DNA of 64,000 nucleotides. It comes from a virus. The first letter of the stretch is position 1. Each line of letters opens with the position of its first letter. The translations under genes were made by a program, and so were the position numbers. The stretch is taken from IMG/VR virus record IMGVR_UViG_3300042894_005670. One strand, written 5' to 3'. Below are positions 1 to 64,000 of this stretch, in pieces. A model generated the notes under the pieces. That model was not told the DNA's origin, made no database searches, and saw only the letters and a list, made by a program, of their open reading frames with translations.

Positions 1-252
1 AACTTGACCCATATAGGGTTCATTAGCTGCTTCATAGTAAATATTTGTTGCCAAACATTTAATTTGATCGGTGCTAAACTGTTTTACAACAGGTGTATGC
101 TTAACTACTTCAGTTACTTCTTTGATGGTTTCAACGACTGATTCTACAGAATTATCGACTACTACCATATTAATTTTCGGTTGATACATATGAAGCGCAA
201 TCGCTAGCGGTATCAATAAGGAAATTAGTCTTATATTGCTTAATACAAGCAT
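1..252 (-). CDS. Cell-wall hydrolase (SleB/Hydrolase_2 family), 5' part; runs off the window start
   Basis: Not in ORF track. Manual translation from ATG at 252 gives MLVLSNIRLISLLIPLAIAL...QIKCLATNIYYEAANEPYMGQV: hydrophobic N-terminus plus the C-LA-NIY-EA-E--GQ SleB motif; AAAGGAG upstream. Confidence 0.8.
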   Translation of the reverse strand, partial: MLVLSNIRLISLLIPLAIALHMYQPKINMVVVDNSVESVVETIKEVTEVVKHTPVVKQFSTDQIKCLATNIYYEAANEPYMGQV

Positions 253-313
253 TTATATACTCCTTTCTTATTAAACCTAGAAATCTAGGATTAATCTGTA
301 AATCAAGATTGGA

Positions 314-2710
314 TTAAAATATCCAACACTCGCAATTACAAATTGTAACATCATCAATAGCTTCCGTTGGTGTAAAGCTTGATGATGGGGAACTAACTAA
401 CGGCTGTGGAACCGTAAAGATACTCTCCAAGTTTGGTAACACACCTGCAACTTGTGGATAGCCTCCACGTTGTGGCGAAGGTGGATCTTGTACGACTAAA
501 TCGACAGGATCACTGAGGTTACGGCCTGGGTTATCGATGTTAAGGTTGGTGACTGCGGCACCTACGGTTTGAAGTCCTCCTGTTTGGTTGTTAATTGGGT
601 CTCCAACTTGGGTCATCGTGGGTCTAAGCACAGGTGCTATGCCACTTGGCGGTAATACACCATTAACATATATTTGTGGTGGTTGAGCTGCATTATATCC
701 ACTACCAATATTTGTAATGGCTATGCTTGTTATAGCACCATTAGTGACAATTGCAGTTGCACTAGCTGTTGGAGTAACTAGGCTATCACTAACATCATTA
801 TCAAGCACACCACCTATTAACGCTACTCGATTTGCATTACGAGCTTCACGTAATAATCCTACTATACTTTGTCCTGTTAAATTATCTGTATCAGCAATTG
901 CTTCTATTGATCTTGCAATTTCTTTATATTCTGTTTCCACTGCCCATGTTTCTAATCGACGTATAAAGTCATATATGTCAGTGCGATTACTATCTTCACT
1001 GACTAACGTAGGAACTGTTATAGCAAATACTATGGCACGTTGTTCTATCGTTAATTGTGAACCTAGCTGATTCCACCAAAAATTTAATTGAGCAGCAACG
1101 GCTGCATTAGCTGCTACAATAGAAGCAATCTCTGCATTAGCAGCATTAATATAACCTTGTAAAACACTGTTGTCAAGATACCCAGGATCGCTTGGTGTTA
1201 ACTGTGTCCAATTCCACATATTTAAATAAGCAGTCGCTAAGGTAGGTGTGGCTAATTGATTTATTAAGTTTACTATATTACCATAAATTGCGTTATAATA
1301 GTCACCACTCATTGCACCAATAAAATCAACCATACAATAAGTATTACTATTACCACTACCTAATGCAACTAATGCTAACGCTTGATTAGCTGCATCCCTT
1401 GACCCAGGCACCCCCTCATCATTATTAATCAATGGCAAATCCTTATTAGTTACTTCTAATTGAGTAACAACTTGTGCAAATTTTTGAAAGGGCATTTGCC
1501 TAATTTTTTTAATTTGTTGCATCGAATAACTAAAAGCAGCAGCAGGTATAGCAATGTCTAAGGGTAAAGAATTACCTAAGTATTCACCATAGTTTGGTAT
1601 GCGATTATTAACACCACCATTAACATATATAAAATCATAAATTTTTACTGATATAGTATCAATACTATAACGTGGCACAGTAATAGTATCATATGAGTTA
1701 GGAAACATTTTCTTTATATTAATTAAATCAGCTAATGTTTCTAAATTTACTGTTTGACAATTGGTAATAGTTTTGATTTCGTCTAAATCTACACCTTTAA
1801 TTAATAATAAAGCATCATATATTTTTTTACGTTGTTGATCAGTAGCAGGTGTTTTACTAATTAAAATACTATTAAGTTCATCTGTTGTTAAACCTTGTGC
1901 TAACAGTGCTAGTTTTAATGAATCAGTTAATGCATTTGCTGCTTGTAGTTGCAATAAAAACTTATCTGTCTGTCCAAAAAACTCAATATCAGCTAAATTA
2001 ATTGTATTACCTAAAGCAATTAAGTCATTACCAAAATACTTAAATGCCAAACTTAAACCTGAAATATCAGCAGTGGTCAAATCATTCATGTTACTATAAG
2101 CATTATCTAAAAACCCTTTAGTGTTTTTAAAACTTGCAATAATTTGATTTGTCTGATCACGCCAATTTTTATACTGACCAATACTTCTTATTAATCTTAA
2201 ATAATGATTGCCACTTGATAAGTTCCAAAATTCATAATAAGCTTGTCTAGCGAATAATGCTATAAAACCTTGACTAAAATAAGAATCACCACTACTTGTA
2301 TTACGCTGTGCAGTATTATATACAGTATCTGTCCATCCTGTAATATATGACCATGTTGGTTCGGCTGAGTAGTTGCCTGGGTAGCCTAGGGGTGGGTAAG
2401 GATCACTTGCCCCCGCATAAGTTTGTTGAAAAGTAGTTGGTCTACTATTACCTAATGCAGCACATACACCACTACCTATGGCAATGGCATTACGATAGGT
2501 TGCATTGTTTGCTAAACTATAAATCAATGGTAATGCACGTGTTAAATTATATAACACAGTATTAGTAGTGACAGATCCCGCAGTATAGGTGGATGGTGTC
2601 CATGTACCTTGGTATGCTTGTGCTGTGGGATTAATACGAAAACCTTCACTTCGCATCAATCCACTCAAAGCATTTAGTTGTAGCGGAGTAAATTTACCTG
2701 ATAAACTCAT
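314..2710 (-). CDS. Large hypothetical protein, probably virion/baseplate-associated
   Basis: 798-aa ORF coupled downstream of the PAAR gene; A/T/N/S-rich; C-terminal CNCEC. Confidence 0.5.
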   Translation of the reverse strand: MSLSGKFTPLQLNALSGLMRSEGFRINPTAQAYQGTWTPSTYTAGSVTTNTVLYNLTRALPLIYSLANNATYRNAIAIGSGVCAALGNSRPTTFQQTYAGASDPYPPLGYPGNYSAEPTWSYITGWTDTVYNTAQRNTSSGDSYFSQGFIALFARQAYYEFWNLSSGNHYLRLIRSIGQYKNWRDQTNQIIASFKNTKGFLDNAYSNMNDLTTADISGLSLAFKYFGNDLIALGNTINLADIEFFGQTDKFLLQLQAANALTDSLKLALLAQGLTTDELNSILISKTPATDQQRKKIYDALLLIKGVDLDEIKTITNCQTVNLETLADLINIKKMFPNSYDTITVPRYSIDTISVKIYDFIYVNGGVNNRIPNYGEYLGNSLPLDIAIPAAAFSYSMQQIKKIRQMPFQKFAQVVTQLEVTNKDLPLINNDEGVPGSRDAANQALALVALGSGNSNTYCMVDFIGAMSGDYYNAIYGNIVNLINQLATPTLATAYLNMWNWTQLTPSDPGYLDNSVLQGYINAANAEIASIVAANAAVAAQLNFWWNQLGSQLTIEQRAIVFAITVPTLVSEDSNRTDIYDFIRRLETWAVETEYKEIARSIEAIADTDNLTGQSIVGLLREARNANRVALIGGVLDNDVSDSLVTPTASATAIVTNGAITSIAITNIGSGYNAAQPPQIYVNGVLPPSGIAPVLRPTMTQVGDPINNQTGGLQTVGAAVTNLNIDNPGRNLSDPVDLVVQDPPSPQRGGYPQVAGVLPNLESIFTVPQPLVSSPSSSFTPTEAIDDVTICNCECWIF

Positions 2711-2976
2711 GGGACAAATACATTATCGCTACCTTGCACTATGCTATGACCACAACTGTTACCACTACCTACTTTAAGTACAGGTGACCCTTCACAAATT
2801 ACAGTGGGCGAAGCAGAAGTAGTGACTGCATTAATATGCTTACCTTTCCTTTTGTGTGGCGTAATTGAACTTACGTGTAATCCAACAGGTTTACCATTAC
2901 AGTAAACATTGGAAGCACCACGTATAATTGCACCACCTTCTTGATTGGTATCACCTTTTCTGCTTAAACTTGGCAT
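2707..2976 (-). CDS. PAAR-type spike tip protein
   Basis: 89 aa with RKGD, NVYCNGKPV, H..H, CGH and GSDNVFV pattern of PAAR/gp5.4 proteins. Confidence 0.85.
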   Translation of the reverse strand: MPSLSRKGDTNQEGGAIIRGASNVYCNGKPVGLHVSSITPHKRKGKHINAVTTSASPTVICEGSPVLKVGSGNSCGHSIVQGSDNVFVP

Positions 2977-2981
2977 CGATA

Positions 2982-3287
2982 CTATCCTAAAATAACTTTT
3001 CTCTGTGTTGGGGTAGCAATACCTGTTGTTGCTTCGATATATTTTACCCTAATATTTTCATCTGTAACACCATAAATTGCTACATTATCTATATTTATGA
3101 CTAAATTTTTGTCATGATCTGCGGTGAATAAGCTTGGCACAAGACCCATGCCTTGGGGTCCTGGGGCTACGCTTACAGGTTGTGTCACACTAACACGATC
3201 AACCCCAACTTCTACAACCTTAGCAACTAACTCCTCACCACTATTCATTTTAAAACTATATACTTCATTAATTTCTATGTATTTCAC
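2982..3287 (-). CDS. Conserved phage protein, possibly Sm-like fold
   Basis: KMNSGEELVAKV start and YIEATTGI end are typical of small T4-like phage Sm-like proteins. Confidence 0.5.
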   Translation of the reverse strand: MKYIEINEVYSFKMNSGEELVAKVVEVGVDRVSVTQPVSVAPGPQGMGLVPSLFTADHDKNLVINIDNVAIYGVTDENIRVKYIEATTGIATPTQRKVILG

Positions 3288-3505
3288 GTTAACCTCTTTT
3301 TAAGATCATCATATCCACCAACATATTCCTCATCAATAAAAATCTGAGGAACAGTACGAGCATTAGGTACTACTTCTAATAACTCCTCTTTTGTATAACC
3401 ATCACCTATTTTTCTTTCTTCAAACTCAATGCCATGTTGCTTTAATAGTTGTTTTGCCTGATCACAAAATGTACAATGATATTTGCTCCATATAATAGCT
3501 TTCAT
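3284..3505 (-). CDS. Glutaredoxin
   Basis: CTFC active site, TVPQIF and GGYDDL motifs; follows nrdB. Confidence 0.95.
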   Translation of the reverse strand: MKAIIWSKYHCTFCDQAKQLLKQHGIEFEERKIGDGYTKEELLEVVPNARTVPQIFIDEEYVGGYDDLKKRLT

Positions 3506-3531
3506 TTTTTATCCTTTATTGGTATATAGTA

Positions 3532-4638
3532 TTAAAGTTGTGGTAGTAATTCTTTTTCTACCGTATCACTCATTACCCCAATAACATAGCTTGTACTTTC
3601 AGTTTCCTGTAGCGCAGCTTGCTTTTTATTCACGTTCAAATGTTTATTGAACCATGGAATGGGATTACTCTTAGGATGAGTACCACTATACTTTAATCCA
3701 ATATCACGTAGTTTAAGATATGCAGTGTAATCTACAAAATCTTTTAGAATTTCTGCATTCAAACCAATGACAGGACCTTTCTTGAACAAATAGTCTGCCC
3801 ATAGTTTTTCTTCACGTATAACATCTTCATACAAAGTGTATACTTCTTGTTCACACTCAATTTTGGCTTGTGCAAAACGTGGATCGTCTTTAACTACCTG
3901 ATTTATAATCCATGCTGTCCACTCAGTATGCAGTAATTCATCTTGTAAAATTAAACTAATAATGTTGCCATTACCAATAAAGATTTTATTTTCTACCATA
4001 GCTAAGCTTGTAGCAAAAGACACCATAAAACGAAATGCTTCTAAAGCATAACTTGCATTAAGTGCTAACCAAATTGCTTTGATATGCGTTGATTCAAGGA
4101 AAGGAATATAAGGAGGCTCAGAAGTTTCTTTCAAACAATTTAGTTTATGTAACTCATCATAATATTTACCTACACTAGATGCCATATCAATGATTTCTTG
4201 TGTATCATGGATTGTATTGAATACTTCTTTTGGCACACCGTAAATGTTACGTATAATATGACTATAACTTTTACTATGAATGTTGGTTTCAAAGAATGAC
4301 CAATTGTTTACTAATGCTTCTAGTTCAGGCAAACTTACTACAGGCGTAAACACTTGTGATGGTGCACGACCTTGTATACTATCTAACGCAGTTTGTCGTA
4401 ACAAATTACTAGTAAAGATATGCTTGATAGCCTCACTTGCATCTTTCATATCCATCTTATCTTTGGTTAGTGTTACTTCTTCAGGTACCCAAAAGAATCC
4501 ACGTGCAGTTTCTTCGAATTTTGCAATTCTTGGATACTTGACTTCTTCAAAACGTTGAACGGTAATTTCGCCATCCAAAAACATTTTTCTACTTAAATAA
4601 TCAGTTTTTTTTGTTAAATCATATTGTTGTTTGCTCAT
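3532..4638 (-). CDS. nrdB: Ribonucleotide reductase class Ia beta subunit
   Basis: FFWVPEEV, ETNIHSKSY, EAFRF and DELLH diiron motifs, C-terminal QETE..SY; start taken at MSKQQY. Confidence 0.95.
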   Translation of the reverse strand: MSKQQYDLTKKTDYLSRKMFLDGEITVQRFEEVKYPRIAKFEETARGFFWVPEEVTLTKDKMDMKDASEAIKHIFTSNLLRQTALDSIQGRAPSQVFTPVVSLPELEALVNNWSFFETNIHSKSYSHIIRNIYGVPKEVFNTIHDTQEIIDMASSVGKYYDELHKLNCLKETSEPPYIPFLESTHIKAIWLALNASYALEAFRFMVSFATSLAMVENKIFIGNGNIISLILQDELLHTEWTAWIINQVVKDDPRFAQAKIECEQEVYTLYEDVIREEKLWADYLFKKGPVIGLNAEILKDFVDYTAYLKLRDIGLKYSGTHPKSNPIPWFNKHLNVNKKQAALQETESTSYVIGVMSDTVEKELLPQL

Positions 4639-5294
4639 TTTTCTACCCATTGTTTAATTCTATTATGTACACCACTTGCTAAAACAATTTTACATATGTG
4701 TTCTAATCGCTCAATATGCTCAAATGCTCTCCAAGGTGTACTATCTACTGCGACTACTCCATGTCCTTTTATACCTACAATATCATACTTAATAAAACCA
4801 CGTTCGTCTAATCCTAGTGCCGCATGACAAGCATCGCCTAGCTCTTTACTAATTGGTGGAACATCACCAACATTAGGCGCAACTTTAGTATAACGACTTA
4901 ACTCAGGAAAATCTTTGACTAAATTTTGTAAAGAAATACCTGCATGCATAGCTGCAATAGTATAGGTAGGATGCACATGAACTACTACACGAATATCATC
5001 AAGGTGTTGCCCTAGTTCTTTTTGCAACCCAAAATGTAATGGTAACTCACCACTTGGTTGTAGGTTACCACTTATATCATCTTGCTCTATGATTTCATGA
5101 TGATAGTCATTTTGTGTTTTTACAATACGAATTTTTTTGAACATATCATATTGCATTTTTTGTTTACGTACACCGCTAGGTGTAATATAAAAATGATTAC
5201 GGTCATGGTATCTGATGCTTATATTACCATCTCTACTTGTAATCCAATTTCTATGATATGCTTCAACTAAAATATCACAACAAGTTTCCAACAT
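4635..5294 (-). CDS. Class II aldolase/adducin-family protein
   Basis: DGNIS, ITPSG, PSGELPLH, VVHVHP and GHGVV zinc-binding motifs. Confidence 0.9.
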   Translation of the reverse strand: MLETCCDILVEAYHRNWITSRDGNISIRYHDRNHFYITPSGVRKQKMQYDMFKKIRIVKTQNDYHHEIIEQDDISGNLQPSGELPLHFGLQKELGQHLDDIRVVVHVHPTYTIAAMHAGISLQNLVKDFPELSRYTKVAPNVGDVPPISKELGDACHAALGLDERGFIKYDIVGIKGHGVVAVDSTPWRAFEHIERLEHICKIVLASGVHNRIKQWVEK

Positions 5295-7618
5295 TATAAC
5301 TTACACCCTTCACAATCTTCCTCAGCAAATTCTTCCTCAATAGGTGGCATAAATGTTATAATGTTATCATCTTTCAACGCAGCTTTTGCGCCCATCTTAT
5401 TGATAAGTGAATAATAATATGTTTTCAATCCCCAATGTACACCAAGCATTAAATTTTTCGCAACGACTGTAGCAGGTACTTTACCCCCACTATAATGTGC
5501 AGGATTGTAAAAGGTATTTGTACTGATACTTTGATCGACATATGCAGCAAGAACAGCAGCAGTTTTTAGATAATCTACGCAATCAGTTTGTTCCCACATA
5601 AGTTGATAACGACTTTTTAATCTACGATATTCAGGAACAACTTGTACAAATGACCCCGCTTTACTTTCTTTTACACTGATTAACTCCATAGGCATCTCAA
5701 TACCATTTGTGCTGTTAAGAACTACACTGCTGCTTTCTACAGGAGCAATTGCCATCAATGTAGCGTTGCGTATGCCATGTTTTTTGATCTTGGCACGAAG
5801 TGGCTCCCAATCAATTGATGGTGTAAAATCGGTCAATTCATTTACACCTTGTGCTCGACGCTCCCAAGGAAATACGCCACGACCATAATAAGTATATTGA
5901 CTGCGAGCGCATGCACCACGTTCTTGTGCTAATTCAACACTCATTTCAGTTAAGTAAAATGCTTGATGTTCCATCCAGCGTTTTACTTCAGCAAGTGCTT
6001 CAGATGTACCATAACGATAATTTCTCCTAGCATGCCAATATGCAAGATTAGTGATACCCACACCAAGTGGTTCAAAATCATCATTGGCTAGTTTACTTTG
6101 TATACTAAGAAAGTCTTGGTAACCAAGTAAATTACTTAAGCTACGTACTAGTACACGACATGCTTTACGCATTTCTTGTGGTGTTCTAAATGACCCCCAA
6201 TTAATACTACCTAATGTACATAATGCGATTCTTCCATTAGCATCTTCAATTCTTTGGAATGGGCGAGTTGGTAATAATATTTCTTGGCAAAGATTACTTT
6301 GGTATATAGGATCTGTTTTAGTATCAAATGATGACTGTGCAATAACGTTATCAATATTTACAAGGTATATTCGCCCTGTATCAGTACGTTCTTTTAAAAT
6401 ACCATTTTTAAATATTTCATCCGCTGATAATACTTTTTTCTTTTTAGTTTTATCATGTTCATACTTGACATACAACTTTTCAAATTCTTCAGTATTACGA
6501 TAAAACGCTTGGTACAAATCAGGTACTTCATGTGGATCAAATAAGGTAATGTTTCCACCTTCACGATATCTGCGCCAAAAGAATTTACTTACCACAACGC
6601 TATAGTCCATTTGACGAACACGTGTTTCTTCCGTACCTTGGTTATTTTTTAGTACAATAAAATCTTCAAATTGTGCATGCCAAATAGGTAATGTAACGGT
6701 ACAACTTGCGTTACGAATACCACCTTGACTACAACTACGTAAATCACTAAACCATTTTTTAAGAAATGGTACTAACCCTGTGTGTTTAATTTCCCCATTG
6801 CGAATAGGTGCACCCAATGGACGAATTCTACCGATTTCTAATCCAATACCTGCACGTTTACTCGCATATTTTGCCATCATTTCTCCTGCAGCGAATATGC
6901 TATCAAGGGTATCATCACTACTGATAAGAACGCAAGAACTGAACTGTTTAGTAGTAGTGCCAAGCCCAGCAAGCACAGGGGTGGCAAGAGTGAAATGACC
7001 ATCTGAAGCGCACTCATAATAATCCTTGACATATTTTAATCTTGTTTCTTTTGGTTCATTGTGGAAAGCTGTAGCTGCCGCAATAGCATATCTTATTTGT
7101 GGAGTTTCATATAATGTATTGGTGGCACGATTTTGTACCAAATATTTTTCGCAAAGTTGTTCAATTGCGCTGTAGGTATATTTTTGATCTTTATCATGAT
7201 CGATAAACAATTCAATAGTATCCCATTCTTGCTCAGTATACCAACTAAGTAAATCCGCCGTATACATACCTAATTCTACATTACGTTTGACAATATCATA
7301 TAAACGATCAGGCTCATACTTGCCATAAACTTCTTTACGTAGCATTGAAACACGTTGGCGACCTGCTACGTATTGGTAATTGACATTATTAATTTCAGGA
7401 TTTTCTGATTCATCAATTAAATCAACCATAGCTTTTAGTAGTAATCCATCAATTGTTTTGGTGGACATACCATCTGTGAATTGTATTTGTGCCCTGATTT
7501 CTATCATACTTGGGCTAACATTATCTATACCCCTACATCCATTTTGTACTTGACGCTGAATTTTGGAAATATCTAGAGGAACACGAGACCCATCTCGCTT
7601 TATAACGTTGATTGTCAT
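5294..7618 (-). CDS. nrdA: Ribonucleotide reductase class Ia alpha subunit
   Basis: N-terminal ATP cone (VIKRDG), FSSCVL, QSNLCQEI, C-terminal CEGCKL. Confidence 0.97.
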   Translation of the reverse strand: MTINVIKRDGSRVPLDISKIQRQVQNGCRGIDNVSPSMIEIRAQIQFTDGMSTKTIDGLLLKAMVDLIDESENPEINNVNYQYVAGRQRVSMLRKEVYGKYEPDRLYDIVKRNVELGMYTADLLSWYTEQEWDTIELFIDHDKDQKYTYSAIEQLCEKYLVQNRATNTLYETPQIRYAIAAATAFHNEPKETRLKYVKDYYECASDGHFTLATPVLAGLGTTTKQFSSCVLISSDDTLDSIFAAGEMMAKYASKRAGIGLEIGRIRPLGAPIRNGEIKHTGLVPFLKKWFSDLRSCSQGGIRNASCTVTLPIWHAQFEDFIVLKNNQGTEETRVRQMDYSVVVSKFFWRRYREGGNITLFDPHEVPDLYQAFYRNTEEFEKLYVKYEHDKTKKKKVLSADEIFKNGILKERTDTGRIYLVNIDNVIAQSSFDTKTDPIYQSNLCQEILLPTRPFQRIEDANGRIALCTLGSINWGSFRTPQEMRKACRVLVRSLSNLLGYQDFLSIQSKLANDDFEPLGVGITNLAYWHARRNYRYGTSEALAEVKRWMEHQAFYLTEMSVELAQERGACARSQYTYYGRGVFPWERRAQGVNELTDFTPSIDWEPLRAKIKKHGIRNATLMAIAPVESSSVVLNSTNGIEMPMELISVKESKAGSFVQVVPEYRRLKSRYQLMWEQTDCVDYLKTAAVLAAYVDQSISTNTFYNPAHYSGGKVPATVVAKNLMLGVHWGLKTYYYSLINKMGAKAALKDDNIITFMPPIEEEFAEEDCEGCKL

Positions 7619-7629
7619 TTTTTAATACC

Positions 7630-8067: not shown

Positions 8068-8070
8068 GTA

Positions 8071-10830: not shown

Positions 10831-10862
10831 AGTATATCTTTTATAGTGATATACTTATTTAT

Positions 10863-23637: not shown

Positions 23638-23638
23638 T

Positions 23639-53056: not shown

Positions 53057-53077
53057 AAGAAGCACAACAAACTAAAT

Positions 53078-54067: not shown

Positions 54068-54119
54068 ACGTATCCTCTAAAATAGATAACGATATTTACA
54101 CAAAACAACAACGATGAAA

Positions 54120-54299: not shown

Positions 54300-54300
54300 A

Positions 54301-54806: not shown

Positions 54807-54826
54807 AAAAGCCTCCTGTTATATAT

Positions 54827-55510: not shown

Positions 55511-57758
55511 TTACCTCATCCTTATCAATTGTTTTTTCTGCTGTAAAATTAATTTCATCTCCGTTTAGTATAACGTGAACATTAGAATCTTTTAATTTTT
55601 CAAATAAAATCTTTTTACTTAACGGTACTCTGATAAGTTCATCAATCTTACGAGCAAGTGGACGTGCACCCATTTTATCGTCATAACCAACTTTAGCTAA
55701 GTGCTCAACTGCTTGCTCACTAATCGTTAAATTAATCTTGTGCTGTTTAAGTAATTGTGCTTTTAACTCATTAACAAATTTAATAACAATTTTCTTAATG
55801 GCTAACATGTCTAACTTACTAAACTTACATACTAAATCAATACGATTACGCAGTTCAGGTTTGAAAAACTCTTTAAATGCTCGGTCATCTTCACCTACTT
55901 TTTGTGTTGACCCAAAACCAATGTTTGATTTTTCACTATCTCTAGCACCTAAATTACTAGTCATAATAATGATTGTGTTTTTAGCATCTACCGTTTTACC
56001 ATTAGTGCTAGATATTCTACCCTCATCCAATAATTGTAAGAATAAGTTATACACATCAGGGTGTGCTTTTTCAACCTCATCAAACAATAATATAGCGTAT
56101 GGGTTTTTACTTAGATCATTGATAATTTTTCCACCACCAAGATTACCTTCACCATAGCCGACATAGCCTGGGGGCGCACCAATCAAAGCAGCTACGCTAT
56201 GTTTTTCTTGATATTCACTCATATCATAACGTAGCAATGGCATGCTTAAATGTTCGCTTAATAATCGAGCAGTTTCAGTCTTACCGCTGCCTGTTGGTCC
56301 TAAGAATAAGAAACTTGCCATAGGTTTCTTTTCATTAGAAATACCCGCAAAGCTAACATATATTCTATCTAAAATTTTCTCTAATGTAGCATCTTGCCCA
56401 TAGAGTTTTTGTTTAATATTTTGATCTAAGTTAGTCATTTTTTCTGATGAATCATTAGTAAGTTTGTCCGCAGAAACGTTACACATTCTAGTGACTTGTT
56501 CTTTAATACTATTTTCATCAATAATTGCACCAACATTGTTTGCAGCACGTTGTTTAGCACATGCTGCATCGAGTAAATCAATGGACTTATCAGGATTTTT
56601 TCTATCATGAATATATCTTGCGCTCATAGTGACTGCCTCAGTAATAGCATTAGGCATAATTTTTACACCATGAAATGACTCAAGACGTTCACTTAATCCT
56701 GTCAAAATGTCAATAGTAGTTGCATTTGTTGGCTCATCAATAGAAACACGGTAAAATCGACGCATTAAAGCACGATCTTTTTCAAATGATTCGTAGTATT
56801 CTTCCCACGTGGTACTAGCAATTACCTTCAAGTTACCTTTTGTAATTGCAGGTTTAATCATATTGGCAAAGTCTACACTGCCACCACTACCATTTCCACT
56901 ACCACGCATAGTGTGTGCTTCATCTATGAATAAGATAGCTTTAGGTTTGGTTGCTAATGCTTCTAAAACGTGTTTAACTTTTTCCTCAAAATCACCACGA
57001 TACTTACTACCTGCAAGTAGTGATCCAATTTCTAATGAATATACTTCATGGTCAAACAAAAATGGTGGTACATTTTTGTCAAGAATTTTTTGTGCTAAAC
57101 CTTCAGCAAGGACGGTTTTTCCAACGCCTGGGTCGCCAACAAGTAATACATTAGATTTGAAACGTTTAGCTAATACATTGACAATATCATTAACTTCACT
57201 TTCACGCCCAATCAATGGCTCAATTTTATTACGTTTGGCTAACTCAGTTAAACTAATCGTAAACTCATCTAATACTTCATTAGCTTGTTGCTCAGTCATT
57301 TTTCCACTCTTACTACTTTTGTGTGCTTTATTCCAATAAGCAATAAATTCATTCCGTGTTACGCCCCATTTCAATAAGAAATAATGTGCATGGCTGTTAG
57401 TTTCCTGTAAAATTGAAATATATATGTCTATTAGTTCAATTTGTCTGCGTCCTGTGAATAATACTTGTGTTACTGCACGATTAAAAACACGCTCAAGTGA
57501 ATGAGTTTTCTTTGGTGCTACAGGAGTACCATCTTCATTTGGAGACACTTTTAAATTATTGACTGAATCTAAATATTCATCAACTTCTTGAATAAGTTGT
57601 ACTGTATCGACACCAAATTCATCTAGATGTTCCCTAAATGATTCAAAGGTAATCAAACTTAACAAAGCATGTTCTAATGTTACATAACCATGATATCTGC
57701 TTTTTGCAATCTCAATGGCATGCTCAATTAATTTTTCAATTTCAGGGTTGTTTATCAT
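55482..57758 (-). CDS. clpA: Clp/Hsp100 ATPase (ClpA-like)
   Basis: Clp-N domain, two Walker A motifs (GDPGVGKT, GPTGSGKT), KYRGDFE, GAPPGYVG and IGF loop. Confidence 0.92.
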   Translation of the reverse strand: MINNPEIEKLIEHAIEIAKSRYHGYVTLEHALLSLITFESFREHLDEFGVDTVQLIQEVDEYLDSVNNLKVSPNEDGTPVAPKKTHSLERVFNRAVTQVLFTGRRQIELIDIYISILQETNSHAHYFLLKWGVTRNEFIAYWNKAHKSSKSGKMTEQQANEVLDEFTISLTELAKRNKIEPLIGRESEVNDIVNVLAKRFKSNVLLVGDPGVGKTVLAEGLAQKILDKNVPPFLFDHEVYSLEIGSLLAGSKYRGDFEEKVKHVLEALATKPKAILFIDEAHTMRGSGNGSGGSVDFANMIKPAITKGNLKVIASTTWEEYYESFEKDRALMRRFYRVSIDEPTNATTIDILTGLSERLESFHGVKIMPNAITEAVTMSARYIHDRKNPDKSIDLLDAACAKQRAANNVGAIIDENSIKEQVTRMCNVSADKLTNDSSEKMTNLDQNIKQKLYGQDATLEKILDRIYVSFAGISNEKKPMASFLFLGPTGSGKTETARLLSEHLSMPLLRYDMSEYQEKHSVAALIGAPPGYVGYGEGNLGGGKIINDLSKNPYAILLFDEVEKAHPDVYNLFLQLLDEGRISSTNGKTVDAKNTIIIMTSNLGARDSEKSNIGFGSTQKVGEDDRAFKEFFKPELRNRIDLVCKFSKLDMLAIKKIVIKFVNELKAQLLKQHKINLTISEQAVEHLAKVGYDDKMGARPLARKIDELIRVPLSKKILFEKLKDSNVHVILNGDEINFTAEKTIDKDEVIGTDGIIRI

Positions 57759-58188
57759 ATTGTTTTTCCAATTTTCTATCCATCATAGTAATACCATCTA
57801 AATGATCCACTTCATGTTGTATAACACGTGCTTCTAACCCACTAAATGTTTCAACAAACATGTTACCATTTGCGTCATTGTAAGATAGCACAATAGTTTC
57901 AGGTCTGTCAAGTTCCACTGATTCATTAGGATAGCTTAAACATCCTTCAAGATAAGGTGTACTACCTTGTGCATCTTGAATCATAGGATTAAAAAAAGCT
58001 TTTTCATTATTATCTACTGCCATAACAAAAACCCTACTGCGTAATCCAACTTGATTAGCAGCAAGTCCAATACCACCACTTTCATGCATAAATTTTAACA
58101 ACTGCTTAGCTAATAATTCGTTTTGTATGGGGTATTTGAAATCAACAGGTTTAGTTTTTTGATATAATGTTCTTTTAGTTAGCTTCAT
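57742..58188 (-). CDS. def: Peptide deformylase
   Basis: [15 protein letters not shown] and QHEVDHLDG. Confidence 0.95.
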
Positions 58189-58979
58189 TTCGTATTTAAT
58201 ACACGTTCTTGCTCTAAAACTCTGATTAAATTGTCACTTATTTCTTCAGGCATAATGGGTCTAAGTATAACATACTGATCACCCAATCCAAAATTATTGG
58301 ATAAACCATGACCACCTAACCTTAATGTTGCATTAGGTTTAGCTCTTGGTTGTATGCTGATTTCTAGTTCTTTACCATATATCGTTGGTACGATAATTAA
58401 CGAACCTATGACTAAGTCAAAAATACTTATATCATAATTAAAATATAAATCTAACCCACGCCTTTCAAACAAAGGATGCCTATGTTGTCTATAAGTAACT
58501 TGAAGTGGTCCATCAGGCATTAACCCTTCATACTTAACAACACCACCATCGTCAATACCTTTTGGTATTTTCACTTCAAATAATTTCATACCTTGTGGTG
58601 TATTAATTTGCAAATTATGTTTATCACCTGTGGCTATTTGTTCTAAAGTGACAAATACTGTAGCGGTATATACTCGCTGCTGCGGTGGTGCATGTGGATG
58701 CCTAAAGAATTGCCCAAAAATATCATGGATATTTTGTCCGAAATGAAACTCAAAACCACCTTGTTGTGGATTAAACCCATTAAATTGTGGTTGAGGATTG
58801 TCATAAACAGCACGTTTTTGTGGGTCACTTAACGTGTCGTATGCTGCTTGTATAGTTTGAAAACGTGCAGTATCACCACCTCTGTCAGGATGGTGTTGAC
58901 TTGCTAACTTACGATATGCTTTTTTAATTTCATCAGGAGTAGCATTTTTTGCTACTCCTAACGTCTGATAATGATTCAT
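58185..58979 (-). CDS. DnaJ-class co-chaperone (CbpA-like, no Zn finger)
   Basis: J domain with HPD, G/F linker and DnaJ C-terminal domain. Confidence 0.92.
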
Positions 58980-58993
58980 CAGATTATTTAATT

Positions 58994-59494
58994 CTATGCT
59001 TTTCCTGCAATTTTTTCTTGGCTACGTCCATATGCAGTTAAACCTAATACAGCACCCATAGCAATATGGTATAAACCTGCACCTTGTAAGGTAATTGGCA
59101 TCCATTGACTATTAACTTGTCCATGGCTTAATGCTTGTAATACACTCCATAACACAGGAAATGCTACAAAATCAGCAAAACATGTGAGCATGTAAATAAC
59201 ACTCATCATGGGTCGCCAACGTTTATTAATCCAATCACCAAACTTATCATCGGTTTTGATCAATACGTCAGCAGGTCCGCTTTGCATTGCGCCGCCTGGG
59301 TTTTTAAGGATTTCTGCTTGATTTGCCTGTGGTGGTGCGCCCCATTGCATTGCTGCTTTTAAATCATGTGGATCATGCCATCCATCTGTCTTTATTTTAG
59401 GATCTTTAACTAAACGTTCATGTGCTTCATCATTCAGTGCAAAACCTCGCTCATCATCTGATCGCTGTGCTAATGTTATTGTTGTTATAGCCAT
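58994..59494 (-). CDS. Putative holin (3TM/GTA-type)
   Basis: WRP motif, hydrophobic helices and [11 protein letters not shown]. Confidence 0.7.
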
Positions 59495-59503
59495 AAGCTT
59501 TCC

Positions 59504-60046
59504 TTAAATTATACCTGCTTGACGTTGCATTTGTACAATATCAGCATCTTGTGTTTTATTTGTATTAGTTTCTAATCCTGCAATTGATCGCCACTCATTT
59601 AATTCATCTTGATGCTCTTGTTTATATTCATTTGGTTTTAGTGCTAAATTATTTTCTAAAAATTCTTTTGATGCATCACCTGATTCGCCATTTAGCTTAA
59701 TTGTCCACTGATCTAAAGTTAAACCTGTTAAAGTTTGTAAATCACTTAACAATTCTATAATATGTTTTGGTGCAAGTTTATTTCGCTCTAATTCAACAAA
59801 AACAATGTACTTACCTTGAGATACTTCACTTGGGCTACGATCAGCATCTAAAACCCAATTGTATCCACGTTCAAACCATTCAACCAAATCATCTCCTGCA
59901 TACTCATCTTTTACCGTAAAGTTTAAAGTAATAACATCACTATCTTCGCCTACAGTGGACTTGTATTGATCCACCCCTAACAATGGCAACATTAAATGTT
60001 CCATATCAAGATAACTCAAACTTTCATTGATTTTTTCTTTTGTCAT
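59504..60046 (-). CDS. Conserved hypothetical phage protein
   Basis: D.YKS..G.D, ERGY.WVLDAD and VFVELER. Confidence 0.65.
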   Translation of the reverse strand: MTKEKINESLSYLDMEHLMLPLLGVDQYKSTVGEDSDVITLNFTVKDEYAGDDLVEWFERGYNWVLDADRSPSEVSQGKYIVFVELERNKLAPKHIIELLSDLQTLTGLTLDQWTIKLNGESGDASKEFLENNLALKPNEYKQEHQDELNEWRSIAGLETNTNKTQDADIVQMQRQAGII

Positions 60047-60663
60047 AGTGCAGGTTGTCCACTAGGTGGAGGTGGAGGCGGTGGTGGGGCTAAGCCACCG
60101 CCCCCAAATGGTGTAGGTTCTGCCATAGCATTATCACCATTGGTTTTTAATTCTTTTTTATCATAATCTTTTTGATATGCATCTTCTAAATCTTCAAGGT
60201 CAATAGCTTGTTCAGCGATATCTACACTACCTTCACGTATATCATTCATTAATGATTTTGGTATAGTAATATTCACTAACCATACTGATTTTTTAGTTTT
60301 CTTAGGGTAATGAGTGCCTGGTTTGTAGTCCATAGGCTCTTTAATTTCAACAGGTACTTCAACAGTTGTTTTTTTAAATTTAACCTTACATCCTAGGGTA
60401 ATCAAACGTTTGCCACCACGTGGATCAGGCATTAACGAGTTAGGCCACATGAAGGTGCATGAAACAAGATATTTGCTTATAACAGGACCATCAACCAATT
60501 CACCCATTTTCCAATTCTTGTATGCATACACATCTGCTTCATCTACTACACGTTCAAAATCTAAAAGTGTAGCCATAGTACCATCACTTGTCATGATACC
60601 TTTTACGTTATTTACAATGTCAACCCACTCTAGTGAATCTAAGAATGTATCTTTCTTAGGCAT
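60043..60663 (-). CDS. Conserved hypothetical phage protein with Pro-rich tail
   Basis: DFERVVDE, NW..GELV.GP and MPDPRGG; start MPKKD. Confidence 0.65.
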   Translation of the reverse strand: MPKKDTFLDSLEWVDIVNNVKGIMTSDGTMATLLDFERVVDEADVYAYKNWKMGELVDGPVISKYLVSCTFMWPNSLMPDPRGGKRLITLGCKVKFKKTTVEVPVEIKEPMDYKPGTHYPKKTKKSVWLVNITIPKSLMNDIREGSVDIAEQAIDLEDLEDAYQKDYDKKELKTNGDNAMAEPTPFGGGGLAPPPPPPPPSGQPAL

Positions 60664-60840
60664 AATCCTCTTCCATGTAATTATATTTATCTTTAATATC
60701 GTTAAGTGAGTTAAACAAAATTTACAACACAGTTTATTATTTATATTATTCATGTGCAAAAAACACACCTAGTAATATAAATTATAATCTATTTAAATAC
60801 AGTTGAGCGCAATGCTCGATACACATAAGGAGTGATAACT

Positions 60841-61617
60841 TTGAGTCGTAGAAAAAACTCGGCAATCCGAAAAGAGCAAGAAAAATATACTAAACAAATG
60901 ACTAAAAACGATACACAGACACACTACAGAAAACATGAAAATACGATAGAATTTAATCCACAACGACAAAGACGTGCAATAAATCTCATACCAAAGAGCA
61001 TTAATCAAGAAAATTATATACTAGCACTTTGTGATGATAGTATCAACGTTGTAGTTGGTGCAGGTCCTGCAGGTACAGGAAAAACTTATCTTGCCACACT
61101 TGCTGCTATACAAGCATTACGCAGTAAACAATGTGAACGAATAATTTTAACACGCCCTGCGATTACAGTGGATGATGAAAAACACGGGTTTTTACCTGGC
61201 GATCTTAACCAAAAAATGGAACCTTGGACAAGACCATTGCTAGATGTGTTTCGTGAATTCTATCATGTTAAAGAAATTGAACACATGTTAGCTGAACAAA
61301 TCATAGAAATATCACCCTTAGCATTTATGCGTGGTAGAACATTTAAAAATGCGTACGTGATATTAGATGAAGCACAAAATGCCACACCAAGTCAATTTAA
61401 AATGTTGTTAACACGTATTGGTGATAATAGCAAAATAGTTTTGGTTGGGGATACTGATCAAGCAGATAGAAAACGTTCAGATAATGGGTTATTGGATTTA
61501 CAACATAGATTAAGTATGTATCCAATTCCAAGCTTAATTGTATGTAAGTTTGACGAACGTGATATTCAAAGACACAGTATTATTGAACATGTATTGTTGG
61601 CATACAAGACATTATAA
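60841..61617 (+). CDS. phoH: PhoH-family ATPase
   Basis: GPAGTGKT, GFLPG, RGRTF, DEAQN and GD..Q; TTG start after AAGGAG. Confidence 0.95.
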   Translation: MSRRKNSAIRKEQEKYTKQMTKNDTQTHYRKHENTIEFNPQRQRRAINLIPKSINQENYILALCDDSINVVVGAGPAGTGKTYLATLAAIQALRSKQCERIILTRPAITVDDEKHGFLPGDLNQKMEPWTRPLLDVFREFYHVKEIEHMLAEQIIEISPLAFMRGRTFKNAYVILDEAQNATPSQFKMLLTRIGDNSKIVLVGDTDQADRKRSDNGLLDLQHRLSMYPIPSLIVCKFDERDIQRHSIIEHVLLAYKTL

Positions 61618-61647
61618 CTTAAAACCCGCTTAGTCGGGTTTTAAGTT
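61616..61647 (+). terminator. Terminator hairpin after phoH
   Basis: AACTTAAAACCCG-CTTAGT-CGGGTTTTAAGTT. Confidence 0.75.
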
Positions 61648-61731
61648 TGTACTTACTTAGTGATAAATAAAGATGTGGTTCACGAGCCTCGGAAACTCCA
61701 ACCACTCTAACGCTATTAAGGAGCAATCAGC

Positions 61732-62361
61732 ATGGGTATTTATACCATATACAGAGCACGAAATACAGTGACTAATTTATCCTATATAGGATTCACTTCT
61801 AATTCACTAAAACGTCGAAAAATAACTCATAAACACAAAGCATTAATAAAACAACAAAAATCTAAATTTTATAATGCTATTCGTGAATACGGATGGGATT
61901 CATTTGAATGGATTGAATTATATCAAGCTAAAGAAGATTGTCTCCCAAATAACTCACATACCTTATCCGTAATGGAAAATTATTTCATACAAGAACACGA
62001 TTCAATTAATAATGGTTACAACTCAGTAAATGGAGGAGGTTTATATCCAATTTTGATTGGTGGTCAAAATCCAATGTTTGGAAAAAAGCACAACGAACAA
62101 TCAAAAAAATTAATGAAAGAAAATCGTAAAAAAACTTTTGGAAAAAATCATCACATGTATGTAGTAAAACGAACAGAAGAATGGTTAAATAAAAACGCAA
62201 GGGGTAAAAATCACCCAATGTTTGGGAAACATCATACGAAAGAATCAATACTTGCTATAAAATCAGCAGTTACAAAATGTGAATATTGTGGTATAGAAAC
62301 AATTAATGGGAATTACAAACGTTGGCATGGTAATAATTGTAAGTTTAAACCCCAACAATGA
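61732..62361 (+). mobile_element. Free-standing GIY-YIG homing endonuclease with NUMOD3-type repeats
   Basis: TIY..YIG, R...H, YG, E..FI and GYN; repeated G..NPMFGK.H; own ATAAATA box. Confidence 0.88.
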
Positions 62362-62935
62362 TCTCATAAATTTCTTTCCAATTCTTAACACGTGGCACAA
62401 GTGGGTTATCATATCCCATATTGTGTCCGTGTTCCATAAGAAGTGGTTTTAAACCAACCTTTAATCCTGCTTGGCAGTTGGCATACTTATCTTCTATCCA
62501 AAAATATCCACTGTCTTTATATTTGACAAGTTCATCATCTTTATCTGCTCCTGTATCAAGGCAGATAATTTCCTCAAATACAGTGTTACCAAATAGCTTT
62601 TCAAGGTTCATTTTACGCAATTTTTGTGCGTTTTTATCTAAACTTAACGATGTGATAGCATGAAAAACAAATCCATGCTCCTCATGTAACTTTTTAACAT
62701 AATGTATAGCATCACGTAGCGGAGGTAAAAAACCAATGGCTGCTGATTCATTAAAAATCTTAATTAATCGTTTTCCATCTTCTTTGTCAATACCGTAACG
62801 CTTACCAATGTTATATTCAAATTGAGAACCCTCTAGTTTCTTATGTCCGTGTTCTTGCATCCAACAATCGAAAGCATATTCCCAATTACACAATACACCA
62901 TCAACATCAACCAAGATCAAATTATTATCTGTCAA
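62345..62935 (-). CDS. HAD-superfamily phosphatase/nucleotidase (T4 30.2-like)
   Basis: VDVDGVL, AITS and WIEDK. Confidence 0.85.
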   Translation of the reverse strand: MTDNNLILVDVDGVLCNWEYAFDCWMQEHGHKKLEGSQFEYNIGKRYGIDKEDGKRLIKIFNESAAIGFLPPLRDAIHYVKKLHEEHGFVFHAITSLSLDKNAQKLRKMNLEKLFGNTVFEEIICLDTGADKDDELVKYKDSGYFWIEDKYANCQAGLKVGLKPLLMEHGHNMGYDNPLVPRVKNWKEIYEIIVGV

Positions 62936-62983
62936 GATTATTCCCTCACTAAAAACTTATTATACCACAAGTTAATCAGTTTG

Positions 62984-63238
62984 TCAATTCTTTACTGCTG
63001 CTGCCGATAACTGTGTGATAAGTTCAGGGTATATTTTTTTGTAGTAATCATTTAGTAAATCAAAAGTAGTTTCAACCCTTTTACCTTCAATAATACACTT
63101 TACCACTTTTTGGTCTTTATAATCAACGATAACATTACAAGTTTCAAGGTCTTTATCACGTACCTTTTTAGAAAACCCAACTTGTTCGTCAATTTGACCA
63201 CCTGATTTACGCATATAGGTAATCAATAGGTATCTCAT
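62984..63238 (-). CDS. Conserved hypothetical protein
   Basis: MRYLLITY..K..GQIDE. Confidence 0.6.
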   Translation of the reverse strand: MRYLLITYMRKSGGQIDEQVGFSKKVRDKDLETCNVIVDYKDQKVVKCIIEGKRVETTFDLLNDYYKKIYPELITQLSAAAVKN

Positions 63239-63507
63239 ACTTTTTTCTTCTTTGTAGCTTTAGCTTTTTTAGTTGGTGCTTCAACCACAGCACCCTCGTA
63301 CCCAGGATGATACGGAGCTTCTTCAACAAGTTTGGTTCTATGGTGTTCAGCCATAGCATCATTTATGTGCGTACGTAATTGTTCCCAATCAATAATAAAA
63401 TCTACACGACCATCACCATGTATAGTACGGGTAGAATAATGCCCTACAGTAATACTTTCTAGGTCTTTTTGTGGTTCAGTTTTTTTAGTTTTAGCTTTAG
63501 TTGCCAT
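63235..63507 (-). CDS. Hypothetical protein with K-rich termini
   Basis: 90 aa; GGAG SD. Confidence 0.55.
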   Translation of the reverse strand: MATKAKTKKTEPQKDLESITVGHYSTRTIHGDGRVDFIIDWEQLRTHINDAMAEHHRTKLVEEAPYHPGYEGAVVEAPTKKAKATKKKKV

Positions 63508-63520
63508 ATTAGTTCTCCAA

Positions 63521-64000
63521 TTATGATGCTGTTAGTTCAATGAGTGTGGCTGATAAATTAATTTCAGGTATACCAACAAGCGATAGATTTGCTAAACCAT
63601 TTCTAATAATAATGATTGCGGTATCTTTTTGACTTTGTGTTTTACCCCATAAATCAAGATGGTCATATAACCATTTGTAAATCGATTCAATCCTTGATGG
63701 GTTAAAGCTTAAGAATTGTAATAATAGTTTTCTACCTTCAAGTATATTACCACTCTTAAATGCTTGTGCTACTTCTAATAAAGCAGCGTCTTGATCACTT
63801 TCATCAAGTGTTGATTTTTGTAATTCACCACTTGTGCTATTGGTTTGTAACTGATTTAAGCATTTACGTAAATCAGGATATGTTTGGTGAACATAATGTT
63901 CAAGAACATCAATAGAAAACTGTATATTTTCAGCCATTAATACAGTAGCAGCACGTGCAGTAAACTCAGTATAATCAGGTTTTGATATGTGCATTTTTAC
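63521..64000 (-). CDS. Clamp-loader large subunit (T4 gp44/RFC-like), C-terminal part; extends beyond the window
   Basis: YPDLRKCLNQLQ sensor motif and EINLSATLIEL; frame open to the window end. Confidence 0.85.
   Translation of the reverse strand, partial: VKMHISKPDYTEFTARAATVLMAENIQFSIDVLEHYVHQTYPDLRKCLNQLQTNSTSGELQKSTLDESDQDAALLEVAQAFKSGNILEGRKLLLQFLSFNPSRIESIYKWLYDHLDLWGKTQSQKDTAIIIIRNGLANLSLVGIPEINLSATLIELTAS

Follow-up and report, generated by a model that had tools for sequence, protein, structure and literature searches.

Why does a long stretch of phage DNA nearly lack the four-base word CCAG and its complement CTGG, and why do most of the remaining copies lie inside CCWGG? The stretch, called the window here, is 64,000 nt of an uncultured freshwater-type jumbo phage of ~350 kb (CheckV estimate). 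It is filled by a block of replication and metabolism genes, with 80 of 84 ORFs on the minus strand. The polymerase PolB is encoded in the window, and PolB identity was used to grade relatives. The close relatives compared are contigs G1, G2, and G6.

Word counts were compared with 300 synonymous-codon shuffles that kept every protein and the codon usage of each gene. By exact count, the window has 21 CCAG and 26 CTGG, 47 in all, and 36 of these are inside CCWGG (14 CCAGG, 22 CCTGG). The remaining 11, i.e., CCAGH/DCTGG, stand against 174.7±10.6 expected (z = −15), so the depletion is real after codon and amino acid correction. The original prediction, made by eye from the letters, had put these numbers at about 35, about 10, and well over 100, and the exact figures bear it out. 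CCGG is likewise confined to the one copy reported near 33196, at 33196 exactly, with 26.7±4.5 expected (z = −5.7). Missing from that prediction were CGCG, with 0 copies versus 29 expected (z = −6.4), and GGCC, with 16 versus 45 (z = −6.0). Eight six-base palindromes, CAGCTG, GAGCTC, GTCGAC, CTCGAG, CGATCG, GACGTC, AGCGCT, and ACGCGT, have no copy in the window, G1, G2, or G6, and TGGCCA has a single copy among the four, located in G6. Altogether, the purged words number more than 12, including about ten 6-bp palindromes. CCGG, CGCG, GGCC, and the purged 6-mers are classical restriction sites; the most strongly purged word is the non-palindromic 4-mer CCAG/CTGG. The first group of features is as follows.

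1..64000, unstranded: depletion of CCAG/CTGG, CCGG, CGCG, GGCC, and many 6-bp palindromes (counts versus shuffles)
525..63306, unstranded: the 35 Pro-Gly CCWGG sites, each with a C-skewed halo (frame 0, Pro-Gly dipeptides, halo count). First bases, first part: 525, 1182, 1404, 2376, 3160, 10757, 14845, 14989, 15046, 22319, 23480, 24679
First bases, second part: 26277, 28647, 34784, 36499, 38785, 38958, 39957, 40794, 42576, 44328, 44970, 45459
First bases, third part: 45845, 48913, 49214, 49370, 52066, 56167, 57127, 59295, 60317, 61195, 63302
26536..26540, unstranded: the one CCWGG outside a Pro-Gly pair (GCC TGG, Ala-Trp, as read on the coding strand; frame analysis)
7715..60446, unstranded: residual GGCC, 10 of 16 being in-frame TGG CCT (Trp-Pro, unavoidable)

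That is, 35 of the 36 CCWGG are Pro-Gly codon pairs in frame 0. These sites cannot be removed, because any of the four Pro codons placed before Gly yields either CCWGG or CCGG. All 35 Pro-Gly dipeptides in the window use CCW, never CCC or CCG, and the coding strand reads CCA GGN at 21 of them and CCT GGN at 14. The relatives show the same dominance, with Pro-Gly accounting for 66 of 67 CCWGG in G1, 27 of 28 in G2, and 51 of 55 in G6. In sister clades, all four Pro codons occur before Gly (549/459/263/260). Outside frame 0, CCWGG occurs once versus 9.6±2.8 expected, and none of the 300 shuffles is as low. The 10 Trp-Pro pairs of the window all use CCT, so TGGCCA never occurs there. Thus, the survival of CCWGG is a matter of coding constraint rather than of methyl protection: Pro-Gly must be written as CCA or CCT before GG, or else as CCC or CCG, which contain CCGG.

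The forced sites have an additional property. At synonymous positions from −13 to +20 around an unavoidable CCAG, C makes up 30–50% of the bases on the CCAG strand, versus a baseline of 10%. This halo is ~34 bp wide and, to the left and right of the site alike, favours C on a single strand; it falls from 52% C at the nearest positions to baseline by −16 and +23. Counted over the 10 wobble positions that flank the site, top-strand C is 130 in the window versus 46±5 in shuffles, 244 versus 85±7 in G1, 75 versus 33±4.5 in G2, and 164 versus 64±6 in G6. Among all 4- and 5-mers, only CCAG has a halo. None is seen at forced TGGCCT, at control dipeptides, or in 1.87 Mb of sister-clade sequence. The halo comprises A-to-C and T-to-C differences alike, on one strand; C is favoured and G is not, an asymmetry that, to our knowledge, has no established biochemical explanation.

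The halo also follows the site. Eight orthologous Pro-Gly sites read CCA in the window and CCT in G1 or the reverse; at six of these, the flanking wobble C/G flips, and newly gained Pro-Gly sites acquire a halo. Such shifts with site orientation, between genomes that are ~83% identical in protein, amount to a natural mutagenesis experiment. The halo suggests a flank-sensitive, asymmetric agent directed at CCAG and, from its co-evolution with site orientation, we infer that recognition by this agent extends well beyond four bases. A site with a halo, compared with a site without one, is a testable handle for finding the agent.

These observations bear on the proposal, made in the original prediction, that CCWGG is spared by Dcm-type protection, i.e., that an enzyme cutting CCAG and CCGG is blocked at CCWGG by a phage or host methylase. 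The total of CCWGG does invite this reading, since it equals the expectation from composition (36 versus 36) and does not differ significantly from the shuffles (40.7±3.2). The equality is nonetheless accidental and stems from the number of Pro-Gly pairs, which force 35 of the 36, and in the other frames, where protection should apply equally, CCWGG is depleted tenfold. Furthermore, the compensatory halo around CCWGG indicates that the sites remain a liability. The search for methyltransferases beyond the window, recommended at the outset, gave no match to the C5, N4/N6, and D12 models (PF00145, PF01555, PF02086) in the ~320 kb of fragmentary sequence, from an incomplete genome, that the clade contigs G001–G010 provide. 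Models for TGT (PF01702) and the thymidylate-synthase family (PF00303) had no match in the clade contigs either, and the 64-kb window showed no methylase motif. Dcm-type protection is thus highly improbable; the pattern of CCAG avoided except in CCWGG is no evidence for methylation and should not be read so.

The words that replaced the lost ones speak to a second, mutational proposal, in which deamination of methyl-cytosine erodes CCAG and CCGG while a Vsr-type repair rescues CCWGG. Most of the lost sites gave way to A/T swaps at the third base (CCA-G to CCT-G, xCT-GG to xCA-GG), which are not a product of deamination: the base after CCT is G 186 times, and after CCA only 25 times. The largest compensating excess, in CAGG/CCTG (411 versus 307, +104), is the expected product of these swaps and consists of A/T third-base choices rather than C-to-T changes. 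The original prediction had listed an excess of CTAG or TCAG as a check, and neither word gains enough to match the deficit. CTAG is at expectation (153 versus 147), contrary to deamination with Vsr rescue, whereas TCAG/CTGA is mildly in excess (441 versus 373, z = 3.5), a gain of 68 against a deficit of 164, which is what the proposal has in its favour. Decay of CCA-G by deamination would alter the amino acid and be purged, leaving the sites in place, yet the sites are gone. A DNA repair enzyme would not confine its rescue to the Pro-Gly frame, and the mixture of A-to-C and T-to-C differences on one strand of the halo is foreign to deamination. This mutational explanation is scarcely credible.

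A third possibility is that the phage itself uses CCAG in AT-rich flanks as a signal core, for example in packaging, replication, or transcription, so that spurious copies are purged and forced ones disguised. Flank dependence and strand asymmetry do look more like a recognition element than like the site of a 4-bp cutter. However, no intergenic or repeated element bearing CCAG was found in the 64 kb; ORFs contain all 36 CCWGG and, of the 11 remaining CCAG/CTGG, at least 10. Such a signal is very unlikely.

There remain the copies that are neither Pro-Gly nor otherwise in CCWGG, at 5975, 6966, 16299, 32785, 32801, 32829, 33217, 47633, 50982, 51142, and 52541. With the single CCGG, they make 12 exceptions, as follows.

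32727..33262, minus strand: main cluster, with CCAG/CTGG at 32785, 32801, 32829, and 33217 and the sole CCGG at 33196
50960..51170, minus strand: 195-nt in-frame module with exceptions 50982 and 51142, not conserved in the G1 orthologue
47633..47636, minus strand: GCT GGC in an ART-PolyVal protein, within a segment not conserved in G1
16299..16302, minus strand: old non-forced CCAG (CCA GCC, Pro-Ala) in a DnaB-like helicase gene, conserved in G1
6966..6969, minus strand: GCT GGG (Ala-Gly), non-forced and conserved in G1, in the large subunit of ribonucleotide reductase
52541..52544, minus strand: window-specific CCA GCA, which is CCT GCA in G1
5975..5978, minus strand: window-specific point difference, CGC TGG for CGT TGG in G1, lacking a halo

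The exceptions are clustered rather than uniform, with five of the 12 within 450 bp (P = 5e-6 under uniform placement). The cluster covers two members of a small paralogous gene array in a GC-richer segment (0.39–0.41). Its parts 32727–32867 and 33014–33196 are 97–98% identical in DNA to G6 86453–86761, which is the only DNA-level match between G6 and the window, and no orthologue of the segment was found at the corresponding place in G1. The module is bounded by an exact 16-nt direct repeat (50960–50975 and 51155–51170). In total, eight of the 12 exceptions are in mobile or variable locations, i.e., in the dispersed segment of small genes, in the repeat-bounded module, or in a protein segment that is not conserved. 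The suggestion that exceptions flag recent insertions is upheld to that extent: fresh, unpurged DNA, as in the dispersed small gene and the repeat-bounded module, retains the words. The old site at 16299 has a halo of C at third positions (GTC, TAC, GCC, AGC, ACC, GTC), and two codons upstream of the 52541 site read ATC AAC in the window versus ATT AAT in G1.

The purge has a narrow distribution. It is common to contigs G1, G2, and G6 and to loci with ~83% PolB identity; in relatives at PolB identity of 69% or less, CCAGH is in excess. The purge is restricted to the window's own clade and is best read as lineage-specific avoidance of restriction sites, so that the proposed selection by restriction or defence systems is supported. 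Close relatives also differ in the words purged: TGCGCA has no copy in the window versus 14 in G1, and AAGAGA has one versus 29. These differences suggest differences among host strains.

This last point weighs on a further alternative, namely that an unmodified phage carrying its own short-word endonuclease or endonucleases, used to shred host DNA, keeps its genome free of the words, with the halo detuning the forced sites. No modification genes were found in the ~320 kb of clade sequence, as such a phage would require. The window encodes nuclease-like proteins, one with a T5orf172 domain (25443–26156) and one with a weak PD-(D/E)XK match (10863–11573). A long, asymmetric footprint is typical of GIY-YIG or homing-type nucleases, e.g., T4 endonuclease II, and the long, degenerate, asymmetric footprint of that class would suit the halo. 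On the other hand, no nuclease of the window is tied to CCAG, a set of more than 12 purged words is better explained by many enzymes of hosts than by a single one of the phage, and the variation of the words among close relatives again points to host strains. Self-avoidance is therefore considered unlikely.

The explanation that we prefer, with a probability of roughly 0.78 for the whole, is avoidance of restriction words at the level of the clade, with forced Pro-Gly and Trp-Pro leftovers and a halo that lowers the action of an agent at CCAG. The clade would have been selected, mostly at synonymous positions, to lose the words of many restriction-type enzymes in its host range, namely CGCG, CCGG, GGCC, about ten 6-bp palindromes, and the non-palindromic CCAG/CTGG. 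Where Pro-Gly is forced, the phage always takes CCWGG, with its one CCAG, over the palindromic CCGG; where Trp-Pro is forced, TGGCC is inescapable and copies survive. The agent directed at CCAG is presumed to be asymmetric and sensitive to ~15 bp of flank per side, and the halo may reduce its action at CCAG that cannot be removed. Such properties would set it apart from an orthodox palindrome cutter; it could be a nuclease that cuts at a distance, tracks along a strand, or melts DNA locally. Literature searches turned up no enzyme that recognises CCAG or CCRG alone, and we know of none.

Some ~250 forced CCAG are expected genome-wide, so the purge alone cannot confer immunity. We tentatively suggest, at somewhat less than even odds, that the halo is counter-defence of a kind not described before, here termed site armouring, against a strand-polar CCAG nuclease that needs AT-rich flanks of ~15 bp. 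Silent positions near an undeletable CCAG would be recoded to C on the CCAG strand, and the recoding would be redone on the opposite strand whenever the Pro codon flips. If armouring is true, a restriction activity that is widespread in aquatic habitats and still uncharacterised has left its footprint in the halo, which can then serve to find it. The halo also offers a new mark by which defence pressure can be recognised in the genomes of uncultured phages.

How does this compare with known systems? The word biases of the E. coli Dcm/Vsr system involve the same words, CCAG, CTGG, CAGG, CCTG, and CCWGG. There, repair enriches CCAG-type words and depletes CTAG; the window, by contrast, is depleted of CCAG, has CTAG at a normal level, and keeps CCWGG as Pro-Gly. 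Phage T7 evades the Type III enzyme EcoP15I by holding all sites in one orientation. The likeness is that an asymmetric site that is not fully removable is handled by arrangement rather than by loss. Unlike T7, the window has no orientation bias, and the compensation is in flank composition: remaining CCAG versus CTGG number 21 versus 26 in the window and 49 versus 38, 26 versus 25, and 43 versus 40 in the other three contigs, with switches of orientation at random expectation in all four. In the slow sites of restriction enzymes, the neighbourhood alters cutting, as it seems to matter here; those effects span a few bp and are not strand-polar, whereas the halo extends over ~34 bp with C on one strand on both sides. 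A literature search that included flanking effects found no halo-like flank at leftover sites. The closest counterpart is site avoidance in virulent dsDNA phages, surveyed across ~4000 viruses, where it was found almost only at orthodox Type II sites and rarely at Type III or IIG sites (Rusinov et al. 2018, PMC6286503). The window fits this kind in that short recognition-type words, CCGG, CGCG, GGCC, and many 6-bp palindromes, are nearly all lost from it, by silent codon choice and in a lineage-specific manner, with no DNA modification detected. Against that survey, a purged non-palindromic 4-mer is atypical, and the window goes beyond textbook site avoidance in two respects: its most purged word is the non-palindromic CCAG/CTGG, and the unavoidable copies carry a strand-polar halo of 34 bp in their flanks.

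CCAG/CTGG occurs 47 times in the window, 36 times within CCWGG and 11 times elsewhere, and CCGG is found as a single copy at 33196. Expectations for these words come from 300 shuffles of synonymous codons inside genes, in which all proteins and the per-gene codon usage are preserved.

Table. Word counts in the window and expectation from codon shuffles
CCAGH/DCTGG: observed 11, expected 174.7±10.6
CCGG: observed 1, expected 26.7±4.5
CGCG: observed 0, expected 29.1±4.6
GGCC: observed 16, expected 44.7±4.8
CCWGG: observed 36, expected 40.7±3.2

The depletion is large and real. The observed counts, CCWGG apart, lie far under the shuffle expectation, so the avoidance of CCAG/CTGG outside CCWGG and of CCGG, which the original prediction had noticed by eye, survives correction for codon and amino-acid usage.

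The pattern is one of selection rather than decay. CTAG and TCAG had been named as words that might be in excess; CTAG is at expectation (153 vs 147), and TCAG/CTGA shows a mild rise (+68). The largest gain is that of CAGG/CCTG (411 vs 307), the product expected from swaps of CCA-G to CCT-G and of xCT-GG to xCA-GG. A G follows CCT 186 times but CCA just 25 times, 21 of which are forced by Gly. The losses are third-base choices of A or T that destroy the word, not C-to-T products. Methyltransferases, suggested at the outset as a target for a search in the rest of the genome, were not found: Pfam C5, N4/N6 and D12 models matched nothing in clade contigs totalling ~320 kb, nor did models of the TGT/DpdA and thymidylate-synthase families, and the window has no methylase motif. 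The data examined hold no sign of methyl protection.

The apparent sparing of CCWGG, for which Dcm-type protection or Vsr-type rescue had been proposed, is a coding constraint, and this replaces both interpretations, which the data do not support. Pro-Gly is written CCN GGN: with CCA or CCT the result is CCWGG, and with CCC or CCG it is CCCGG or CCGGG, both containing CCGG; any spelling of the pair therefore holds an avoided word. Thirty-five of the 36 CCWGG in the window lie in frame 0 and encode Pro-Gly (21 CCA GGN and 14 CCT GGN), the sole other copy being GCC TGG, and the Pro codon before Gly is CCW in 35/35 cases, though 10% of Pro codons are CCC or CCG. In the other two frames, where the word is silently removable, CCWGG is itself depleted (1 vs 9.6±2.8 expected, with 0/300 shuffles that low). 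Pro-Gly accounts for 66/67, 27/28 and 51/55 of the CCWGG in G1, G2 and G6, respectively, three contigs of close relatives; in sister clades that do not avoid the words, all four Pro codons precede Gly (549, 459, 263 and 260). The agreement of the 36 CCWGG with the 36 expected from composition is fortuitous and reflects the number of Pro-Gly pairs. The same forced-codon logic explains the residual GGCC, for which Trp-Pro is the only forced context: TGG CCT contributes 10 of the 16 copies, and all Trp-Pro pairs choose CCT, so that TGGCCA is absent from the window. As to the proteins themselves, Pro-Gly pairs are mildly reduced (35 vs 44), Gly-Pro pairs number 25 against 44 predicted from amino-acid frequencies, and 28/33 Pro-Gly pairs are conserved between the window and G1, above the average residue.

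The window has a GC content of 34.2%, with 80 of its 84 ORFs on the minus strand. Its genes include the following.

4635-5294: class II aldolase, between the two ribonucleotide reductase genes
35841-36887: UvdE UV-damage endonuclease
55482-57758, minus strand: ClpB-like two-ring AAA+ chaperone (ATPase)
58185-58979, minus strand: full-length DnaJ
Elsewhere in the window: ribonucleotide reductase large and small subunits; DnaB-like helicase; UvsW-like helicase; family B DNA polymerase; 5'-3' exonuclease; two 2OG-Fe(II) oxygenases; ART-PolyVal protein

The polymerase shares 46-50% identity with its counterparts in Phosso and Atu_ph07 (phages of ~470-490 kb). For the polymerases of enterobacterial, Erwinia, Pectobacterium and Xanthomonas jumbo phages (350-380 kb) the value is ~42-43%. 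No near-identical phage was found in the GenBank phage set, the nearest public relatives being uncultured IMG/VR contigs. One of these, G1, has a length of 137 kb and an estimated completeness of 39%; it shows synteny along the entire window, with a mean protein identity of 83%. Another, G6, overlaps G1 and carries the genome onward in the opposite direction. The window thus belongs to a jumbo phage with a genome of about 350 kb. Members of the clade occur in lake metagenomes (IMG/VR sources 3300023179, 3300046804 and 3300047121).

The purge covers many words and is specific to the clade. It is common to loci with a ~83% identical polymerase and to G1, G2 and G6, whereas in relatives with polymerase identity ≤69% CCAGH is 1.5-fold above the composition prediction. 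The 6-bp palindromes CAGCTG, GAGCTC, GTCGAC, CTCGAG, CGATCG, GACGTC, AGCGCT and ACGCGT are missing from the window and all three contigs, and TGGCCA has one copy among them, in G6. TGCGCA (0 in the window vs 14 in G1) and AAGAGA/TCTCTT (1 vs 29) are purged only in the window, a sign that the enzymes encountered may differ even among close relatives. The cultured Synechococcus phage S-PM2 (1-50000) has no CCGG, 5 GGCC and an excess of CCAG/CTGG; avoidance of CCGG and GGCC thus need not accompany avoidance of CCAG. The depletion against codon shuffles, the A/T third-base swaps and the clade-specificity support the reading, also offered at the outset, that the words are avoided because of a restriction or defence system.

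The 12 exceptions in the window, namely the 11 CCAG/CTGG outside CCWGG and the single CCGG, are clustered, with five within 450 bp (P=5e-6). Their surroundings, and those of a cluster in G2, are as follows.

31500-33600, minus strand: at least five small paralogues of 64-96 aa in an array, with shared motifs ELAEQ, FAELI..EC and HFG(V/I/M)E
50960-51170: module of 65 codons within an 819-aa ORF, with 16-nt direct repeats 195 nt apart, in frame
G2, 55.3-57.5 kb (L199:15344-17510): two delta-9 type fatty-acid desaturase genes flanking a small gene

The five clustered exceptions fall in two members of the array, at 32.5-33.3 kb, a locus with no orthologue at that place in G1. Here, 32727-32867 and 33014-33196 show 97-98% DNA identity to a distant G6 locus, the only DNA-level match of the window with G6, and homologues of the small gene are present in phages beyond the clade, including phages without CCAG avoidance. 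Copies of the small genes are dispersed: the 97-98% identical segment lies ~86.5 kb into G6, and G1 does not have the array in the form seen in the window. Two further exceptions are inside the in-frame module of 195 nt, which is flanked by the exact 16-nt direct repeat and is missing or different in G1, and one is in a part of the ART-PolyVal protein that is not conserved. In G2, 9/22 exceptions cluster in the two desaturase genes and their neighbour, as expected of recently acquired auxiliary metabolic genes; a search for a host through a desaturase gene of G2 matched metagenome proteins only. The module, the array, the non-conserved segment and the G2 desaturases indicate that exceptions tend to mark recently moved DNA. 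The proposal that they flag recent insertions is supported, though not for every exception: two are single-base differences from G1 and two are old sites kept in G1.

Around the CCAG sites that cannot be avoided, silent positions are enriched in C on the CCAG strand, an arrangement referred to here as a halo. The Gly codon that follows CCA in the window is GGC in 14/21 cases, against a 12% share of GGC among Gly codons; the one that follows CCT is GGG in 8/14, against a share of 9%; and the codon preceding CCA-GG ends in C in 13/21, vs 43/281 before other CCA codons. With every site turned so that CCAGG is on the top strand, C at silent positions from -13 to +20 is far above the 10% baseline. 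Over 121 non-redundant sites, top-strand C is 52% adjoining the site and ~28-39% at 4-11 nt; the 3' fall is uneven (39% at +14, 19% at +17, 28% at +20), and the baseline is regained by -16 and +23. Where the site reads CCT GGN, G is enriched on the coding strand instead, so that the bias tracks the site and not the direction of transcription. The halo was also scored in each contig as top-strand C at ten flanking wobble positions, against synonymous shuffles.

Table. Top-strand C in the halo and expectation from shuffles
Window: observed 130, expected 46±5
G1: observed 244, expected 85±7
G2: observed 75, expected 33±4.5
G6: observed 164, expected 64±6

In a comparison of all 4-mers and 5-mers, such a flank skew (0.21-0.27) is confined to words that contain CCAG, the next best being 0.05 for 4-mers and 0.09-0.13 for unrelated 5-mers. 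The halo is not a general trait of residual restriction sites, since forced TGGCCT, TCGA, GCGC and GATC lack it, as do control dipeptides.

Twenty-eight Pro-Gly sites are common to the window and G1, and the Pro codon differs in 8. In 6/8 of these the flanking silent bases have flipped between C-ending and G-ending codons with the protein unchanged; for example, the window has GTG GTG GTG GCG CCT GGG GAT GGG where G1 has GTT GTC GTA GTC CCA GGC GAT GGA. Newly substituted Pro-Gly pairs have the halo in their flanks, as does a conserved, non-forced CCA GCC in a helicase gene. Just upstream of a CCA GCA specific to the window stand the codons ATC AAC; G1 has ATT AAT before CCT GCA. This co-evolution of halo and site is strong evidence of DNA-level selection linked to the CCAG word. 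A translation or ribosome effect at Pro-Gly would not account for it: CCA GG and CCT GG have no halo in 1.87 Mb of sister-clade sequence, CCAG sites other than Pro-Gly do have one, and the bias switches between C-ending and G-ending with the Pro codon. Nor is the Pro codon simply matched to a fixed local composition, as the non-wobble skew is the same in both classes, and the choice of C is independent of the neighbouring base, against a dinucleotide-specific effect.

Duplex stability alone would favour G like C, and G is at or below baseline in the halo. GC-biased repair after a double-strand break and Vsr-type patch repair should each leave a two-fold symmetric trace, not one strand favoured on either flank, and polymerase error in gap repair would require C to be misincorporated opposite both A and T in the absence of the G-T error, which is commoner. 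The partner half-site of a Type I bipartite site would be confined to one flank, Type III evasion through orientation should leave an orientation bias, which is absent, and a CRISPR PAM has the wrong geometry and symmetry.

Selection at the DNA level would be exerted by an agent sensitive to ~15 bp of flank on either side of CCAG. Since the same strand is favoured on both sides, we infer that this agent is polar, differing from a two-fold symmetric Type IIP enzyme. These properties would fit an asymmetric enzyme, whether its cleavage is remote from the site, it follows a single strand or it depends on local opening of the duplex, and by recoding the surroundings of unavoidable CCAG sites the phage would lower their exposure to it.

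An enzyme with CCAG specificity was not found in the literature, nor was a flanking effect of this type; as far as the literature searched shows, the halo is undescribed, and it supplies the remaining interest of the finding. The purge itself matches what is known of virulent phages that avoid restriction sites (PMC6286503). It is odd in that the word most strongly purged is a non-palindromic 4-mer, as avoidance of such words was rare in that survey. At its core the phenomenon is a counter-defence of a known type, carried through with unusual thoroughness.
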